From the NCBI GenBank assembly GCA_964550425.1, contig CAZJZB010000002.1, forward strand, positions 1,626 to 65,625: a stretch of 64,000 bases of DNA, read 5' to 3'. How positions within the stretch are numbered: position 1 is the first letter of the stretch; each line of letters opens with the position of its first letter. A program made the position numbers and the translations under genes. This DNA is from an uncultured Candidatus Saccharibacteria bacterium (lineage in GTDB: Bacteria > Patescibacteriota > Minisyncoccia > Phycocordibacterales > Phycocordibacteraceae). Positions 491 through 7,952 of the stretch are shown piece by piece. Under the pieces are notes generated by a model. That model had not been told where the DNA came from, ran no database searches, and saw only the letters and a list, made by a program, of their open reading frames with translations.

Positions 491-651
491 GGCTTTGTAT
501 TAAATAGTGGAAGATTACGGCGGTTTTTGGTAGTATCAGAAAATCCGAGCCAGACCAATGAGGAACCGCAATCGTATGGAGTACCATACTGCTTGCTCGC
601 TCGGAGAATGTGAAAATGAGTGTCTGCACTTATTTTCACATTTCCTCGCTC

Positions 652-725
652 GCAAGCGTAGCTCAGTTGGTAGAGCACCCGACTGATACTCGGGCGGTCG
701 TAGGTTCGACCCCTACCGCTTGCAC
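652..725 (+). tRNA. tRNA-Ile (anticodon GAU)
   Basis: Canonical cloverleaf read directly. Acceptor is GCAAGCG/CGCTTGC, D-arm is GCTCAGTTGGTAGAGC, and the anticodon stem CCCGA/TCGGG carries loop CTGATAC (anticodon GAT). The T-arm is GTAGG-TTCGACC-CCTAC with discriminator C. CCA is not encoded. Confidence 0.85.
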
Positions 726-728
726 TAT

Positions 729-1286
729 ATGCACAAAATAACCAACACCTTCAGTAAGGAACCACAGGCGACGCTAGACCTGATAGCGACGTATGACCCG
801 CGAGTCATATCCTGGCTGGATAACAAAGTTAATCTGTTGTTAACTGACTATTTAGGAATAAGAAACTCGCCGTACGGGATTGTTAATATGAGTGACTATT
901 CATACTTGATTACTCCTGCTTTCAAAGCTCTCGAGGGTACCCTAATTCAAATTGCGCGAGAACTCGGTCTTAATGTCGAAAAGGCGGATATAAGAATAGG
1001 AGTAGTTTTTAGTGAGGAGAATCTTGAAATGTTTTACCAGGATGTATTGAATCAAATTGAAGATTTATCAAAAGAATCCAAGGCCGATATCACAATGTGG
1101 CTTAATGACGCACGTCGTTTTCTTCGTCATTTTCGTCATTCGCCAGCCCACTACGGTGGAGATACTAAACAGAACTGGGATCAAGCTTTTGCTGATGGTG
1201 ACCACGTGTTACGAATAATCAATGGTATGTGTTCCGTTTTGTTAGAAAGTGGGGTTTTTGAAAAAGCGAAAACCAAAAAGACGTAG
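729..1286 (+). CDS. hypothetical protein (185 aa) with a possible HEPN-like Rx4H motif (RRFLRH) near the C-terminus
   Basis: ORF track 720..1286 (TTG); the first ATG is at 729. Amino-acid composition is protein-like. It has motif NDARRFLRHFRHSPAHYGG and sits between the tRNA-Ile gene and tRNA-Ile fragments. The stop TAG at 1284-1286 lies inside a tRNA-like CGTAGCTCAG segment. Confidence 0.5.
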   Translation: MHKITNTFSKEPQATLDLIATYDPRVISWLDNKVNLLLTDYLGIRNSPYGIVNMSDYSYLITPAFKALEGTLIQIARELGLNVEKADIRIGVVFSEENLEMFYQDVLNQIEDLSKESKADITMWLNDARRFLRHFRHSPAHYGGDTKQNWDQAFADGDHVLRIINGMCSVLLESGVFEKAKTKKT

Positions 1287-1444
1287 CTCAGCTTGTAAGC
1301 CGTCGGAACGGCTTTTGCCGCGCCGCTCGCTCAGCAGTAAACTTTCTTTCATTTCATTCAAGAAAGTTTTCTCCTGCGTCATTCGGTCGAAATATAAGTG
1401 CAGACACTTTATTTCACCTCATTCCTTGTAGTAGATCACCCTGC

Positions 1445-1461
1445 CTGATACTCGGGCGGTC
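1445..1461 (+). repeat. 17-nt direct repeat of tRNA-Ile anticodon-loop/stem segment (identical to 683-699)
   Basis: Exact identity seen in sequence. Confidence 0.7.
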
Positions 1462-1521
1462 TTAGCGACCAGTTTTGTCCAAGAGCGAAGCGATTGGAAA
1501 CAAAACAGAAGTCCCGTGGGA

Positions 1522-1538
1522 GTTCGACCCCTACCGCT
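1522..1538 (+). repeat. 17-nt direct repeat of tRNA-Ile T-loop/acceptor segment (identical to 704-720)
   Basis: Exact identity seen in sequence. Confidence 0.7.
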
Positions 1539-1625
1539 CGCACCAATTAATACCACGAAAGAAAAGGCAGTTCATTTATACCCACGTTGCACGGTACTAC
1601 GGACACCTGTTGCTATACTGGTAAC

Positions 1626-2138
1626 ATGCGGCGAATGCTCATTATCATTGGATTGGCGCTTGTTGTTGCTATTGCTGCGTTCATTCTCTCCGGACCCGGA
1701 CAGCATCCCCAAAAGAATCCGCTCCATGATGTCGCCGAGGCAAATTTATCCCCGAGAGCCGTGCCGTTCACAAAGCTCGCGCGTGGCACCTATTCGACCG
1801 TAACTAAGCGCGTCAACTACCTCATTACCTCGCCGACCGAACTAGACGAACTTTGGCAGATGCTTGACGCGAAGGGGAACAAGCCCTCGGTCGATTTCAC
1901 ACAAAACGAGGTCATCGCGGTTTTTGCGGGGCAACAACAAGATGCACATCATGAGGTTACGGTCTCAGAGGTTCAGGATGCTGCCGCACGCACAATTTCT
2001 ATAACGTTCACAAATCCGAGCGCCAACTGTGCATCAAAGAAGGCCACCACTGCACCCTACGAGGTCATTGCGATACCGGCCACGTCACTTCCCATCACGC
2101 ACGAGAATATCTCTACGACCACTACCTGCTCGGAGTAA
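1626..2138 (+). CDS. hypothetical membrane-anchored/secreted protein (N-terminal TM helix MRRMLIIIGLALVVAIAAFIL)
   Basis: ORF track 1587..2138; start chosen at the ATG preceding the hydrophobic helix. No confident domain assignment. Confidence 0.45.
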   Translation: MRRMLIIIGLALVVAIAAFILSGPGQHPQKNPLHDVAEANLSPRAVPFTKLARGTYSTVTKRVNYLITSPTELDELWQMLDAKGNKPSVDFTQNEVIAVFAGQQQDAHHEVTVSEVQDAAARTISITFTNPSANCASKKATTAPYEVIAIPATSLPITHENISTTTTCSE

Positions 2139-2176: not shown

Positions 2177-3931
2177 ATGGATGCAAAAGCGCATTTTCAT
2201 GGGAAGCGCATTACCGTGATGGGTCTCGGCCTCTTGGGCCGTGGCGTGGGGGATGCGCGGTATCTGGCCGAATGCGGTGCGGAGCTCATTGTGACCGACC
2301 TTAAAACGCGTGAGGAGCTCGCAGAATCGGTAGCGCAGTTGGAGTCATTCTCAAACATCACATTTATCTTTGGCGAACACCGACTCGAAGATTTCCGCGA
2401 CCGCGATCTCATCCTTAAGGCCGCAGGCGTTCCCTTTGATTCGCCCTATATTGCGGAGGCGAAGAAACACAAGATACCGGTCCGCATGAGCGCTGATTTA
2501 TTTGCGGAGATCTCAAAGATTTCCATCATCGGCGTGACGGGCACCCGCGGCAAATCGACCGTGGCGCACATGGTGTACGCCATTCTCAAAGAAGCCGGAA
2601 GGAAGGCCGTGCTCGGGGGGAACGTGCGCGGTGTTTCAAATCTTGAACTGTTAAAAGAGGTTACATCAGAACATACTGCCGTACTTGAACTTGACTCGTG
2701 GCAGCTACAAGGGTGGGGCGACGCGAAGATGAGCCCATATATCGCGGTATTTACCACACTCTACCCGGATCATTTGAACTATTATGGTTCGACTTCGCTC
2801 ACCACAGGCACGAACAATCTGGATGCATATTTAGCGGACAAAGCGAATATCTTCCGCTTCCAGAAGCCCGCGGATACGCTCATACTCGGCAAGCAGTGTG
2901 CACCGACTATCATTGATACGTACGGCGAGCAGATTGAATCAAAAACGTCCATCATTGACGAGACGAAGATTCCTGATACCTGGGTTCTGAAGGTTCCCGG
3001 GATGCATAATCGTTACGACGCCGCACTCGCGCTCGCTGCCGCTCGCGCGGCCGGCGCCCCTGACGAGACGAGCCGTAAGGCGCTCGAGGTGTTTGTCGGC
3101 GTCCCGGGCCGACTTGAGCTCGTGAGGGAGGTGAAAGGCGTGAAGATATATAACGACACTACCTCAACCACGCCAGAGGCAACACTTGCTGCACTCTCTG
3201 CGTTCGATCCGGCGCACACAATACTGGTCATGGGAGGCGCCGATAAGATCCTCGACATGGAAGTGCTGCTCGCACGTCTTCCAGAAACAAAGAAAGTCAT
3301 TGCGCTCGCCGGCAGTGGTACGGAACGTATCAAAAGCCAGTTGCCAGAAGGTACGGTGACGTACCATTCTATCTTTGATGCAACCGCCGCTGCGCTCTGC
3401 GCTGCCGGGCTTGGCGACATCGTCCTTCTCTCGCCGGCATTTGCTTCATTTGGCATGTTCAAGAACGAATTTGATCGCGGGGATCAGTTCAATACGCTGA
3501 TTCGCAACATACCCGATATAAGCTTGCTCAAGCCGAAAGTCAGAGAACTCGCAGGTCGGTTGATTACAGAGTGCGAGCGGCGAGGATTCGCCGTTGTTGT
3601 TTCTCGGGCGTTCCGCACATCCGAGGAGCAGGACGAATTCTATGCGCAGGGACGGACGAAATCGGGAGCAATCATCACTATGGCACAGGGAGGTTCATCT
3701 TTTCATAACTACGGAGTCGCATTTGATATAAAGCCAATAGTCACAGACGGCGATGAAAAGACGAGAGCGGAGCTATACCGGAAAGCGGGGAAGATTGGCA
3801 TGGACCTCGGGCTTGAATGGGGCGGGATCTGGAAAGAATTTGTAGATCCACCACACTTTCAGTACACAGCCGGGTACTCGATCGAGGACTTTAAAAATGG
3901 TCGAATAGAAGAGGAAAAATTTTCCCTATGA
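2177..3931 (+). CDS. murD: UDP-N-acetylmuramoylalanine--D-glutamate ligase (MurD) fused to a C-terminal peptidase M15 (CwlK/VanY-like, L-Ala-D-Glu peptidase-type) domain
   Basis: The N-terminal about 440 aa is a Mur ligase (ITVMGLGLLGRG Rossmann-like, GVTGTRGKST P-loop, MurD-like architecture). The C-terminal about 130 aa has the M15 SxHxxGxAxD (SFHNYGVAFD) and W...H (LEWGGIW...PPHFQ) motifs. Confidence 0.8.
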   Translation: MDAKAHFHGKRITVMGLGLLGRGVGDARYLAECGAELIVTDLKTREELAESVAQLESFSNITFIFGEHRLEDFRDRDLILKAAGVPFDSPYIAEAKKHKIPVRMSADLFAEISKISIIGVTGTRGKSTVAHMVYAILKEAGRKAVLGGNVRGVSNLELLKEVTSEHTAVLELDSWQLQGWGDAKMSPYIAVFTTLYPDHLNYYGSTSLTTGTNNLDAYLADKANIFRFQKPADTLILGKQCAPTIIDTYGEQIESKTSIIDETKIPDTWVLKVPGMHNRYDAALALAAARAAGAPDETSRKALEVFVGVPGRLELVREVKGVKIYNDTTSTTPEATLAALSAFDPAHTILVMGGADKILDMEVLLARLPETKKVIALAGSGTERIKSQLPEGTVTYHSIFDATAAALCAAGLGDIVLLSPAFASFGMFKNEFDRGDQFNTLIRNIPDISLLKPKVRELAGRLITECERRGFAVVVSRAFRTSEEQDEFYAQGRTKSGAIITMAQGGSSFHNYGVAFDIKPIVTDGDEKTRAELYRKAGKIGMDLGLEWGGIWKEFVDPPHFQYTAGYSIEDFKNGRIEEEKFSL

Positions 3932-5196: not shown

Positions 5197-5927
5197 ACAT
5201 GGGAACGTTTTCTAATATGGTCAAAGGAAAACTTTCGGTCGTCGCGACGCCTATCGGAAATCTGGAAGATATAACGCTGCGCGCTCTGCGTACGCTCAAA
5301 GAGTGCGACGTGATATATGCCGAAGATACACGCGTCGTTTCAAAGTTACTCGCAAGATACGATATTAAAAAACCGTTGCAGCGGCTCGATGCAGCAACGG
5401 AAATGAAGAAGGCGGATGAAATCATCGCTCGGCTTGAGGCGGACGAGCACGTGGCACTTGTCAGCGATGCTGGCACACCGGGGATTTCCGATCCCGGAGG
5501 GCAGCTTGTCGCTTCAGTGCGACAAGCTGCCCTCCGGTCCTTCGTAGCTTCACGCGAAGAAGGGCAGCAAATTATTATTGAAGCGATACCGGGGCCGTCC
5601 GCGCTCACCGCCGCACTTTCTATCGCAGGACTGGATGCGACTGGATTTACGTTTCTCGGATTTCTTCCGCATAAGAAAGGACGCCAAACCGCACTCAAAA
5701 AAATAGCGGTAAGCGAGATTCCGGTTGTGCTCTACGAATCGCCATACCGCATATTGAAACTGCTCAAAGAATTGGGGACCTTGGACATAGCAAAGATCAG
5801 TATTGCTCGTGAACTTACCAAAATCCACGAAGAGGTCATTGTAGGAAGCGTTCAAGAGGCGCAGGACTATTTCGCCGCGCACCCAGGGGCAGTGCGCGGC
5901 GAATTTGTCGTCATCGTAACGCCCTGA
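5193..5927 (+). CDS. rsmI: 16S rRNA (cytidine1402-2'-O)-methyltransferase RsmI (tetrapyrrole-methylase fold)
   Basis: GKLSVVATPIGNLEDITLRA...YAEDTR signature. ATGA overlap with murC; an internal ATG at 5217 is an alternative start. Confidence 0.8.
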   Translation: MNMGTFSNMVKGKLSVVATPIGNLEDITLRALRTLKECDVIYAEDTRVVSKLLARYDIKKPLQRLDAATEMKKADEIIARLEADEHVALVSDAGTPGISDPGGQLVASVRQAALRSFVASREEGQQIIIEAIPGPSALTAALSIAGLDATGFTFLGFLPHKKGRQTALKKIAVSEIPVVLYESPYRILKLLKELGTLDIAKISIARELTKIHEEVIVGSVQEAQDYFAAHPGAVRGEFVVIVTP

Positions 5928-6113: not shown

Positions 6114-7952
6114 ATGGAAAACCCAGAACGCGTTACCTACTTCGCGGCAACTGATTCGCGGGGGAAGTATGTGCCTTTCGGCATCAAGGCGAAGGACCGG
6201 GACCGCCACATGTACGTTATCGGCAAAACCGGCATGGGCAAGTCGACCTTGCTCGAGAACATGGCGATCCAGGATCTCAGGAACGGCGAAGGATTCGCTT
6301 TCATTGATCCGCACGGGGGAACCGTCGACCGGCTTCTCGATTATATTCCCGAAGACCGCATACAGGACGTGGTGTACTTCGCTCCGTTCGATCTAGAGCA
6401 TCCTATCGCGTTCAATGTGATGGAGGACGTCGGTTACGACAAGCGCCACCTCGTCGTGAGCGGCCTCATGGCGACTTTCAAGAAGATATGGGTAGACGCA
6501 TGGAGTTCCCGCATGGAGTACATTCTCACGAACACACTCCTTGCTCTGCTTGAGTATCCGGGCGCGACTCTTTTGGGCGTGAACCGCATGTATACGGACA
6601 AAGAGTATAGGAAAAAAGTCGTTGAAAACGTGAAAGATCCGGTCGTGAAGGACTTCTGGACGAAGGAGTACGCGGTCTACACTGACCGTTACACGCAGGA
6701 GGCGACGCCCGCCATCCAGAACAAAGTCGGCCAATTTACCGGCAACCCGCTCATCAGGAACATTATCGGGCAGCCGAAATCCTCATTTGATATTCGCACG
6801 ATGATGGACGAGAAGAAAATACTCATCATCAATCTTTCCAAGGGTCTCGTGGGAGAGACCAATATGCGGCTTCTCGGTTCCATGCTCACGACGCGCATAT
6901 TCCTCGCCGCGATGAGCCGTGCGAATCTTCCCGCCGAAGGCCTCAAGAAGCTCCCGAATTTTTATTTCTATGTTGATGAGTTCCAGAATTTCGCGAACGA
7001 GACCTTCGCGGAGATCCTCTCTGAGGCGCGCAAATATAAATTGAATCTCGTCATTGCGCATCAGTACATAGAGCAGATGGAAGAAGAAGTGCGCGATGCC
7101 GTCTTCGGCAACGTAGGCACGACAATCGTCTTCCGGGTGGGGCCTTTTGACGCCGAAGTGCTGGAGACCATTTTCATGCCAAGGTTCACGAAGGAGGACG
7201 TCGTCGTACTCGATCGCCGGCAGATATATCTCACGCTCATGATAGACGGGGTCGGATCGGAACCTTTCTCAGCGGTAACGATTCCTCCGATAGAGCCGCC
7301 ACCTTCCTCTCACAGAGAAAAAGTACTCGCCTCATCGCGCACGCAATTCACCGCGCTGCGCGCCGGAGTCGAGAAAACCATTATGGAAGAACTCGCTGCA
7401 AGCGGATTCTCCGAACCCGCGCCCGAAGCGCGGATGCGCAGAAAACCGACAGGTACAAATCCGCCCCTCCGTCAGAGTGCGGAACCGGTCAAATCGTTTA
7501 TGCCCCGCGAAGCGACTGGGTCCGTGCCGCTCGTGCAGGCGAAACATACTGTTGCGCCTCCTGTGAGTACGCGTCCGAATCTGCCGGTAAAAAACATCGC
7601 TACTTTTCCAGCAAAAAACATTCCCGTCTCCGGCGGGAAATCATCAGAAGACCTGAAGTCGATCCTGCGCACCATGACTGCGAAGACCGGCGCGGAGAGG
7701 GAAGAGAAGAAATCACAAAACCAACAGTCCCTCAAAGGAGTTCTTGCGGACGTATTAACGCGAGGTGAGCAACCGAAGAAAGCGCAACAATCCACGCCGG
7801 CCCGGCCGCCTTTGGAGGCCCCGCCGCAGCAGAATCTTCTTGCAGCAGCTCCAGCGACAGTCGGCACCTCGTCAAGTGTCCCGATGCGCGAGAAAAAGCC
7901 CTTCGAGGTTTCCGAAGATACGCTCCGAAAGGTGTTCAAAGACGAGACATAA
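6114..7952 (+). CDS. TraD/VirD4-like (FtsK/HerA superfamily, DUF87-type) P-loop ATPase with an about 230-aa Pro/Ala/Ser/Gln-rich disordered C-terminal tail
   Basis: Walker A is VIGKTGMGKST and Walker B is FYFYVDEFQNF...LNLVIAHQY. No N-terminal TM segment. The low-complexity tail runs from about 7250 to 7950. Confidence 0.7.
   Translation: MENPERVTYFAATDSRGKYVPFGIKAKDRDRHMYVIGKTGMGKSTLLENMAIQDLRNGEGFAFIDPHGGTVDRLLDYIPEDRIQDVVYFAPFDLEHPIAFNVMEDVGYDKRHLVVSGLMATFKKIWVDAWSSRMEYILTNTLLALLEYPGATLLGVNRMYTDKEYRKKVVENVKDPVVKDFWTKEYAVYTDRYTQEATPAIQNKVGQFTGNPLIRNIIGQPKSSFDIRTMMDEKKILIINLSKGLVGETNMRLLGSMLTTRIFLAAMSRANLPAEGLKKLPNFYFYVDEFQNFANETFAEILSEARKYKLNLVIAHQYIEQMEEEVRDAVFGNVGTTIVFRVGPFDAEVLETIFMPRFTKEDVVVLDRRQIYLTLMIDGVGSEPFSAVTIPPIEPPPSSHREKVLASSRTQFTALRAGVEKTIMEELAASGFSEPAPEARMRRKPTGTNPPLRQSAEPVKSFMPREATGSVPLVQAKHTVAPPVSTRPNLPVKNIATFPAKNIPVSGGKSSEDLKSILRTMTAKTGAEREEKKSQNQQSLKGVLADVLTRGEQPKKAQQSTPARPPLEAPPQQNLLAAAPATVGTSSSVPMREKKPFEVSEDTLRKVFKDET

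Follow-up and report, generated by a model that had tools for sequence, protein, structure and literature searches.

How does a single gene come to lie between an intact transfer RNA (tRNA) gene and the broken remains of a second copy of the same tRNA? The question arises in a 64,000-nucleotide (nt) stretch of DNA from an uncultured Candidatus Saccharibacteria bacterium (contig CAZJZB010000002.1, positions 1,626 to 65,625 of the forward strand), hereafter the window, in which a tRNA-Ile gene, an open reading frame (ORF) of 185 amino acids (aa) and scattered pieces of tRNA-Ile follow one another between positions 652 and 1545. We propose, with a probability of about one half, that the locus is a recombination scar at a tRNA-Ile hot spot, in which a HEPN gene is the single cargo, one tRNA copy is working and the other is decaying. 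The anatomy of the locus, the predicted fold of the encoded protein, the states of the locus in two relatives and the recurrence of the gene family beside other tRNA genes are the observed part of this reading. The locus is made up of the following features.

652-725, plus strand: intact tRNA-Ile(GAU) gene, CCA not encoded (ARAGORN; Rfam RF00005).
729-1286, plus strand: ORF for a predicted stand-alone RnlA/LsoA-type HEPN protein (ribonuclease (RNase) LS 'DBD') of 185 aa (Pfam, AlphaFold2/Foldseek, motif).
1282-1298, plus strand: tRNA fragment F1, tRNA positions ~6-21 (end of the acceptor stem, 5' strand of the D stem, D loop).
1426-1465, plus strand: tRNA relic F3 (D loop, 3' strand of the D stem, anticodon arm, variable loop; gapped alignment).
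1466-1521, plus strand: 56-nt insertion that folds into a separate hairpin and parts the variable loop of the relic from its T arm (alignment gap; minimum free energy (MFE) and centroid folds).
1522-1545, plus strand: tRNA relic F4 (T loop, 3' strand of the T stem, 3' strand of the acceptor stem, discriminator A, encoded CCA).
1626-2138, plus strand: flanking host gene of the PrcB_C family, used as synteny anchor (Pfam).

The upstream copy is a regular gene. ARAGORN reported a single tRNA over the whole window, the tRNA-Ile(GAT) at 652-725, and 652-724 scored 73.2 bits against the Rfam tRNA model RF00005, in agreement with a preliminary description of this DNA, made from the sequence alone, which had called it canonical. 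The discriminator A724 is followed by CTAT (…CGCTTGCA, then CTAT), so that CCA is not encoded. Positions 652-1713 are 100% identical to a 1,062-bp Logan contig (L001, SRR8863434) from an independent assembly, and the arrangement is therefore not a misassembly, a possibility for which the preliminary description had allowed.

The same description had listed three collinear pieces of tRNA-Ile downstream, two of them 17-nt identities, and their coordinates and sequences were confirmed, with gaps of 153 nt and 60 nt between them. The first piece, CGTAGCTCAG at 1282-1291, is weak by itself (E 0.36), and it extends to 14 of 16 matches against 657-672 across 1282-1297. The resulting fragment F1 is identical at 16 of 16 positions to 239-254 of the related contig L019 and has the same relative position there, which validates the 10-nt piece. 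The two exact blocks, CTGATACTCGGGCGGTC at 1445-1461 (equal to 683-699, 17/17) and GTTCGACCCCTACCGCT at 1522-1538 (equal to 704-720, 17/17), are collinear, occur nowhere else in the window and gave BLAST E values of 2e-4 and 9e-4 against all 64 kb. Around the first block, 1440-1465 is 88% identical to 678-703, and the anticodon loop CTGATAC is intact in F3. Around the second, 1522-1543 matches 704-725 at 21 of 22 positions; the 3' acceptor strand of F4 is CGCTCGC, with one T-to-C change from the intact gene, and the block is followed by CGCACCA, in which the CCA that the intact gene lacks is encoded, as had been read before.

When the intact gene and its leader were aligned with gaps to 1270-1560, the similarity reached back through the anticodon stem and the D loop (1426-1444) and further to a hairpin at 1391-1417. 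The boundary of the duplication, previously placed in the anticodon loop, has to be moved accordingly. Of the two intervals that had been taken for unrelated sequence, the one of about 150 nt includes the hairpin copy at 1391-1417 and the relic at 1426-1444, and the one of about 60 nt corresponds by alignment to the 56-nt hairpin insertion, of which the window holds no further copy. F3 is without the 5' strands of the acceptor and D stems, and a 19-nt gap against the intact gene takes in the end of the leader as well. The relic and the intact copy share ~85-88% identity, gaps aside, and exact 17-mers are unsurprising at ~12% divergence (0.88^17, or ~0.11, by our own calculation). Neither ARAGORN nor Rfam (E ≤ 10) reported a tRNA, a transfer-messenger RNA (tmRNA) or an intron in 1282-1545, which rules out a tmRNA, a permuted tmRNA and an intron-containing tRNA, and the MFE fold of this region is a row of hairpins without a cloverleaf (z -2.7 to -2.9 compared with shuffled sequence). 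With its 5' acceptor and D-stem strands absent and the model scans negative, the second tRNA-Ile copy is non-functional as a tRNA; the earlier statement that it has no 5' acceptor strand and cannot fold was correct.

Hairpins and short repeats are interspersed with these pieces.

607-642, plus strand: imperfect palindrome with a 13-bp stem and the loop TCTG, separated by 10 nt from the intact tRNA downstream (repeat search).
1299-1316, plus strand: small GC hairpin followed by TTTT (GCCGT-CGGA-ACGGC-TTTT), terminator-like, directly 3' of the ORF (sequence, MFE fold).
1323-1330, plus strand: CCGCTCGC, first copy of an 8-nt direct repeat (sequence).
1332-1376, plus strand: second hairpin, with 17-nt arms that are 88% complementary (repeat search, fold).
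1391-1417, plus strand: copy of the upstream hairpin with its loop inverted, CAGA against TCTG (repeat search, alignment).

The copies of the upstream hairpin at 607-642 and 1391-1417 agree at 85% over 27 nt and contain an exact inverted match of 15/15 (E 0.002-0.013 within the window). Their arms 610-636 and 1391-1417 are 85% complementary, each arm being a palindrome in its own right. The pair of hairpins may be the terminal inverted repeats of a transposon or MITE, or the tRNA leader may have been part of the duplication. The similarity beyond the hairpin at 1391-1417 is not above that of shuffles (z ~1.6), the upstream hairpin is absent from L019, no target duplication flanks the arms 610-636 and 1391-1417, and no comparable hairpins occur at the other loci of the HEPN family. 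The hairpin at 1299-1316, which a consensus terminator scan did not call, has a diverged counterpart in L019. The second copy of CCGCTCGC, at 1534-1541, is the 3' acceptor strand of the relic, and the two copies bracket 211 nt that are absent from L019.

The ORF lies tightly between the two tRNA copies. Its ATG is 4 nt past the tRNA discriminator base, without a Shine-Dalgarno sequence, and its stop codon TAG is inside F1 (CG-TAG-CTCAG). We take ATG 729 to be the real start because the N-terminus aligns with the N-termini of homologs. The preliminary description had left the ORF anonymous. It scored 32.2 bits against Pfam PF19034 (RnlA-toxin_DBD; cutoff 27), and an AlphaFold2 model built from 43 homologs reached a predicted local distance difference test (pLDDT) score of 86 and a predicted template modelling (pTM) score of 0.85. 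In a Foldseek search of the PDB, the best 8 matches of the model were E. coli RnlA or LsoA (probability 0.99-1.0, TM score 0.51-0.61). The Rx4H motif R136-x4-H141 is invariant in the 43 homologs, and so are K66 and E69. A sequence-profile search of the PDB with the ORF family gave nothing significant and did not reach RnlA, so that the link to RnlA needed the comparison of folds. As judged from the model, the product of the ORF is an RnlA/LsoA-like HEPN domain and a putative ribonuclease. When 1.84 billion cluster representatives were searched with a profile, 61 relatives were returned, all of 92-275 aa; members of this family are thus rare, and they always stand alone, with neither the NTD nor the NRD of RnlA.

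With a GC content of 0.409, the ORF is the lowest of the 53 genes in the window (0.484 ± 0.038), and it is probably foreign to its host. Between the repeats the HEPN protein is the sole real ORF and there is no integrase; here the ORF list and Pfam bear out the preliminary description, which had counted one 185-aa ORF without an integrase. No credible ORF was found in 1287-1545. Across 16 loci of the ORF family there was no conserved neighbour gene and no RnlB/LsoB-like antitoxin, PADLOC returned nothing for the HEPN protein of the window, and NCBIfam gave it only sub-threshold matches to the HEPN domain of Cas13a; with no conserved neighbour and PADLOC empty, a protein antitoxin and a known defence system were both rejected. 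The end of a prophage was rejected as well: tblastn of the ORF against 50,697 phage records gave no match, IMG/VR contained no relative of it, PHROGs returned noise only, and the att-like 17-mer block was absent from viral contigs.

The history of the locus was approached through two related contigs, L019 and L018, whose PrcB proteins are 92% and 75% identical to that of the window, respectively. Homology of the window with these relatives begins at ~1563 (blastn). In L018, a single intact tRNA-Ile lies 13 nt before the homology to window position 1576 onward, which is the position of the relic in the window, and neither a HEPN ORF nor tRNA debris is present between the tRNA-Ile and prcB. A 3' relic of a tRNA with CCA lies on the opposite strand of L018, upstream of its tRNA-Ile. 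In L019, an intact tRNA-Ile (72 of 74 positions identical to that of the window, 97%) is followed by 14 nt, F1 (16/16), a diverged first hairpin, CGCTCGC and the shared flank; there is no HEPN ORF, and the 14-nt spacer is without significant similarity to the ORF. Two blocks of the window are thus without a counterpart in L019, the ORF (726-1281) and 211 nt (~1331-1541) between the 8-nt repeats CCGCTCGC. The simplest reading of this comparison is that the tRNA duplication is older than the split between the window and L019; in L019, deletion between short repeats would then have removed the ORF and the larger part of the relic. Small variable segments are known to arise through such deletions (PMC2884548).

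These states also bear on two matters raised by the preliminary description. It had asked whether an empty-site comparison would show 729-1545 coming and going as one block; in L019 the ORF and ~1331-1541 are absent, and F1 and the hairpin after it are kept. It had also considered a conserved two-tRNA locus, and what we found is a second copy that is more decayed in L019 and a single tRNA in L018.

Other features around the locus were recorded in passing. Window positions 504-541, upstream of the tRNA-Ile, are common to L019. Further upstream, 184-299 and 302-490 each encode a short peptide predicted to lie in the membrane (38 and 62 aa, respectively), both of low GC content, and the 62-aa peptide had no exact match in the protein collection. 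Downstream of prcB, 2177-3931 encodes a 584-aa fusion of a MurD-like ligase with a C-terminal VanY/Peptidase_M15_4 D-Ala-D-Ala carboxypeptidase domain; the MurD of L018 is a separate protein of 452 aa, followed by a DUF212 gene. Positions 1-1020 of L018 hold the 3' region of a 16S ribosomal RNA (rRNA) gene that is split by an insertion encoding a LAGLIDADG_1 protein (415-873), and the 16S gene is followed by protein genes, not by a 23S gene. Such an rRNA gene layout is typical of the Candidate Phyla Radiation (CPR).

To see where the HEPN gene occurs elsewhere, we compared 16 distinct genomic contexts of its family. A scan of genome contigs returned a single contig, from Peribacteria. The assignment of the window's genome to CPR/Patescibacteria, which we take as probable, draws on the source names given to the homologs and on what was seen in related contigs. 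In 5 of the 16 loci an intact tRNA gene (Ile, Ala, His and two Leu) shares the strand of the HEPN ORF and lies within ~110 nt of it, as follows.

Window: tRNA-Ile 4 nt before the ORF; broken second copy at 1282-1545.
L002: tRNA-Ala 36 nt upstream; inverted 3' relic of tRNA-Ala 1.5 kb off, with a 25-nt hairpin inside (12/12 and 10/10).
L005: tRNA-His 21 nt downstream; on the upstream side, at 105 nt, a 5' copy of tRNA-His of 63-69 nt that stops in the T loop (91-94% identity).
L015: tRNA-Leu(CAA) 106 nt upstream; the contig ends inside the ORF.
L021/L022: tRNA-Leu(TAA) 69 nt upstream; the last 12 nt of the tRNA, with CCA, again 14 nt past the stop codon.

At an expected adjacency of ~2% (our estimate, from one tRNA per ~20 kb), the binomial probability of five such cases among 16 is ~1e-5. 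Of 11 evaluable HEPN genes, 6 are flanked by direct repeats of 12 nt or more, compared with 3 of 103 other genes on the same contigs (Fisher P 1.3e-5). The right-hand junctions are tight, falling 0-17 nt past the stop codon of the ORF in independent loci. Partial repeats also occur where no intact tRNA adjoins: L012 has a 31-nt 5' tRNA fragment 15 nt past the HEPN stop codon, L013 a 33-nt flanking repeat that was not identified as tRNA sequence, and L006 a 12-nt direct repeat on either side of the ORF. Neither an integrase nor a remnant of one was present in any bracket, those of L005 and L022 included. Because the gene recurs at different tRNAs with junctions 0-17 nt past its stop codon, it appears to travel essentially alone, and the recurrence favours a single-gene cassette without its own recombinase over the random decay of large islands.

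Several of these contigs carry features that we note in their own right. L006 has a pseudo-copy of the plsY promoter and first ~45 nt (6660-6735 compared with 7020-7100), another partial target duplication; it lies ~90 nt past the HEPN gene, and ~280 nt separate it from the real plsY further downstream. In L002, two long non-coding stretches (5420-5890 and 7140-7790) surround the tRNA-Ala/HEPN locus; the upstream one (~470 nt) looks structured, with no Rfam family at E ≤ 1, and the downstream one contains several strong hairpins and the inverted tRNA-Ala 3' relic (7470-7424), which is split by the 25-nt hairpin. The contig with tRNA-His and the HEPN gene, L005, encodes a LOOT RNA at 7153-7285 (Rfam RF03000, 60.8 bits, gathering score 46.4). 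In L003 (5229-6481, identical to L008, Candidatus Peribacteria), the HEPN homolog stands between a divergent trmD and the gene for the beta subunit of pyruvate:ferredoxin oxidoreductase, the latter of which it overlaps by 8 nt; trmD encodes the tRNA m1G37 methyltransferase. L009 (705-5256) and L010 (984-4758) are arrays of single genes separated by modules of 50-200 nt, each made of a terminator and a -10 box. L009 has five copies of the module with the HEPN gene as one unit. The layout of both contigs recalls the cassette-like gene arrays of phages and plasmids.

A second kind of ORF was met at tRNA genes in the same material. L018 (2033-2722, abutting tRNA-Ile at 2713-2786) and L012 (751-1413, abutting tRNA-Gly at 1414-1487) are unrelated contigs that share homologous ORFs of ~220-229 aa (229 aa in L018) with 26-30% identity, each ending at or overlapping the 5' end of the tRNA gene. 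Both begin with a helix-turn-helix (HTH) domain that Pfam assigns to HTH_23, a LAGLIDADG-like motif can be made out by eye in each (LFIAGLMLYAAEGDK and LWLLGLGVYLGEGSK, respectively), and tRNA fragments lie near them, namely a 5' fragment at 669-700 of L012 and the minus-strand 3' relic with CCA at ~1934-1965 of L018. These ORFs possibly encode free-standing homing endonucleases directed at tRNA genes.

Taken together, we suggest that the scar at tRNA-Ile would have formed as follows. A short segment of foreign DNA, carrying nothing but the HEPN gene, would have entered through a crossover within or next to tRNA-Ile. The crossover would have duplicated the tRNA target, so that the insertion of the ORF and the duplication would be one event. 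The upstream copy at 652-725 would have stayed the working gene, leaving the downstream copy or copies at 1282-1545 redundant and free to decay through the 19-nt loss of the 5' strands, the 56-nt hairpin insertion and further hairpins. The downstream debris would then hold the position that the single tRNA-Ile has in the more distant relative L018, and the several generations of debris are compatible with serial events. The ORF would be transcribed from the tRNA promoter and freed by 3' processing of the tRNA as a near-leaderless messenger RNA; expression driven by the tRNA seems probable because the ATG is 4 nt past the discriminator, no Shine-Dalgarno sequence precedes it and the stop codon falls inside F1.

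More generally, a cassette without its own recombinase would land repeatedly at tRNA genes, and three routes could bring about the crossover. A recombinase could be supplied in trans, in the manner of the cis-mobilisable elements discussed below. The event could instead be homology-facilitated illegitimate recombination with the conserved tRNA as a one-sided anchor, a concept that has been described (PMC2884548). It could also be the repair of a cut made by a tRNA-associated homing endonuclease of the sort proposed for L018 and L012.

Several observations weigh against such a scar with its single cargo. About half of the loci (L003, L010 and L020, for example) have neither a tRNA nor a flanking repeat, and L003 means that not all family members occupy tRNA slots. 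The duplications vary in kind and length, comprising the 5' part of a tRNA, its 3' part, 12 nt or a whole tRNA. The cassettes share no conserved non-coding ends and no promoter beyond the Shine-Dalgarno-like AAAGGA, and as such they define no recombination site. The repeats around the HEPN gene of L009 are terminator-promoter modules that also surround neighbouring genes, and L010 has similar modules, none of which directly flanks the HEPN ORF. The 16 contexts are few, and some are on short contigs. At the locus itself, L019 has tRNA debris without the ORF, so that the duplication could predate the ORF. No recombinase was among 10 other sampled ORFs of the window, which were biosynthetic enzymes or SecA. 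The contrast in composition with the host is modest, since the GC content of 1-1500 is only at the 5th-10th percentile of window segments, and a sharp GC boundary at 1545, which we had considered as proof of an island, is weakened by the same value.

Among the other explanations, the one that survives best is that the locus is the decayed remnant of one or more integrase-bearing islands or prophages in tRNA-Ile, with only the gene on the attL side left and the fragments as serial att sites. Direct repeats of the tRNA 3' part bracket foreign DNA here and the intact tRNA is on the 5' side, as for attL and attR, and at least two generations of fragments can be told apart, F1 with CCGCTCGC and the F3-F4 relic. 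Deletion between short repeats, which would do the eroding, is seen to operate at the locus in L019, and the homolog in L020 has an island-like context with a Fic gene and an excisionase-like HTH protein (the latter by eye). However, the same single gene would have to be what was left at five tRNAs with junctions 0-17 nt past the stop codon, and the ends of random deletions should be less regular. The absence of an integrase or its remnant from every bracket and the empty searches of phage records, IMG/VR and viral contigs tell against it as well, and we consider it unlikely.

The debris in L019 bears on another history, in which an old tandem duplication of tRNA-Ile became a pseudogene and the HEPN gene came later into the 14-nt spacer, for example by one-sided illegitimate recombination anchored on the tRNA. 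L019 would preserve the state before this arrival, with an intact tRNA, debris, no ORF and a spacer unlike the ORF, and the divergence of the relic from the intact copy (~85-88% identity plus gaps) exceeds that between the tRNAs of the window and L019 (97% identity). Integration by one-sided homology is documented and has been reviewed for naturally transformable bacteria (PMC2884548). Such a history leaves the fresh tRNA-His duplication of L005 (91-94%) and the repeat of the tRNA-Leu 3' end in L022 unexplained, and needs a coincidence at several independent tRNAs; we give it a somewhat smaller chance than the island remnant.

The broken copy could also be a functional RNA, such as a tRNA-mimicking antitoxin or decoy for the HEPN RNase or another tRNA-like RNA ending in CCA, but this seems very improbable. 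HEPN RNases of other families cleave the anticodon loops of tRNAs, and the relic preserves its T loop exactly, as well as the loop and the 3' stem strand of its anticodon arm, and ends in CCA. The region is somewhat more structured than its shuffles, and no protein antitoxin was found at the loci. Against these points, there is neither a cloverleaf nor a match to an RNA family, two terminator-like hairpins stand between the ORF and the relic, and two exact 17-mers are expected fairly often at the observed divergence. The partner of the HEPN gene, moreover, differs from locus to locus (a tRNA 5' part, a 3' part, 12 nt or nothing), with no conserved RNA component. An assembly artefact or a chance resemblance is next to impossible, because, even if the source is a metagenome assembly in which short repeats can cause misjoins, the Logan contig is identical over 652-1713, the 17-nt repeats are shorter than the assembler's k-mers (k = 31, as we assume), the E values of the two blocks come with collinearity and F1 is also present in L019.

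Returning to the recombination scar with a single HEPN cargo, the preliminary description had seen an att-like scar of tRNA-targeted integration, and a scar of insertion and duplication at a tRNA, not an artefact, is what stands of this; a block present or absent as a unit does not fit the state of L019. Of the three origins it had offered, a small cargo gene carried at a tRNA is favoured by the five tRNA sites and the target duplications over a randomly decayed island. The rare CPR/Patescibacteria-like HEPN family as a whole might even be a minimal mobile unit, having neither a recombinase nor conserved ends, landing at tRNA genes, duplicating part of its target and being expressed from the tRNA. 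We put this forward as a tentative idea that is open to considerable doubt. Such a unit may be linked to other selfish ORFs at tRNA sites in the same lineages, those with an HTH and a LAGLIDADG-like motif.

The matter is of interest because tRNA genes are the classic landing sites of integrase-bearing islands, and the same footprint here surrounds a single gene of 0.56 kb. If the recurrence holds, single accessory genes could be acquired and expressed in very small genomes without a dedicated recombinase, by recombination anchored on conserved tRNA sequence or by recombinases acting in trans, and the family would be a new solitary branch of RnlA-like HEPN RNases with a role in defence, addiction or tRNA-related processes. 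If the single-gene unit is real, its mobility and mode of expression would be distinct from those of integrase-bearing islands, integron cassettes and transposons. If the recurrence fails, the locus would be an ordinary decaying att scar.

Our literature searches found no description of this arrangement, and the nearest known systems each share part of it. As in tRNA-targeted integrative elements, an intact tRNA is directly followed by foreign DNA whose far end is marked by a direct repeat of the tRNA 3' part, the host flank adjoins the displaced fragment, and a more distant relative has a single tRNA there. In contrast with these elements, the locus has no integrase and brackets one gene within 0.7 kb, its similarity spans nearly the whole tRNA and perhaps the leader, homologous loci duplicate the 5' part of the tRNA (L005) or 12 nt (L022), and L019 without the ORF keeps part of the debris, which leaves no clean unit of presence and absence. 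Cis-mobilisable elements (CIMEs) of streptococci derive from integrative conjugative elements and have att flanks and no integrase. The locus resembles them in having att-like flanks and no recombination module of its own, and could move only by an outside recombinase; unlike them, it is far smaller, no parent element with the same site was found, and one cargo gene occupies many tRNA sites whereas CIMEs combine one site with variable cargo.

The protein itself is closest to RnlA and LsoA, the type II toxin-antitoxin toxins of RNase LS, with which it shares the predicted HEPN 'DBD' fold, and its Rx4H motif (R136...H141) and K66-x2-E69 align with the region of their catalytic R and E residues. 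It differs from them in consisting of the HEPN domain only (185 aa compared with ~350 aa, without NTD and NRD), in having no RnlB/LsoB-like neighbour at the 16 loci, in a family sequence profile that misses RnlA in the PDB, and in having no PADLOC match itself. Morons and the promoter-stem-loop cassettes of T4-type phages are single genes flanked by repeated regulatory modules. The flanking repeats of the window, unlike theirs, are tRNA sequence, and no phage relatives of the gene were found; the HEPN gene of L009, like theirs, stands between repeated terminator-promoter modules, and recombination between modules in L009 and L010 could circularise single genes. Insertion at tRNA sites with duplication of the target is thus known from other systems, and what is new here is that a single HEPN gene without a recombinase of its own recurs in such a setting.

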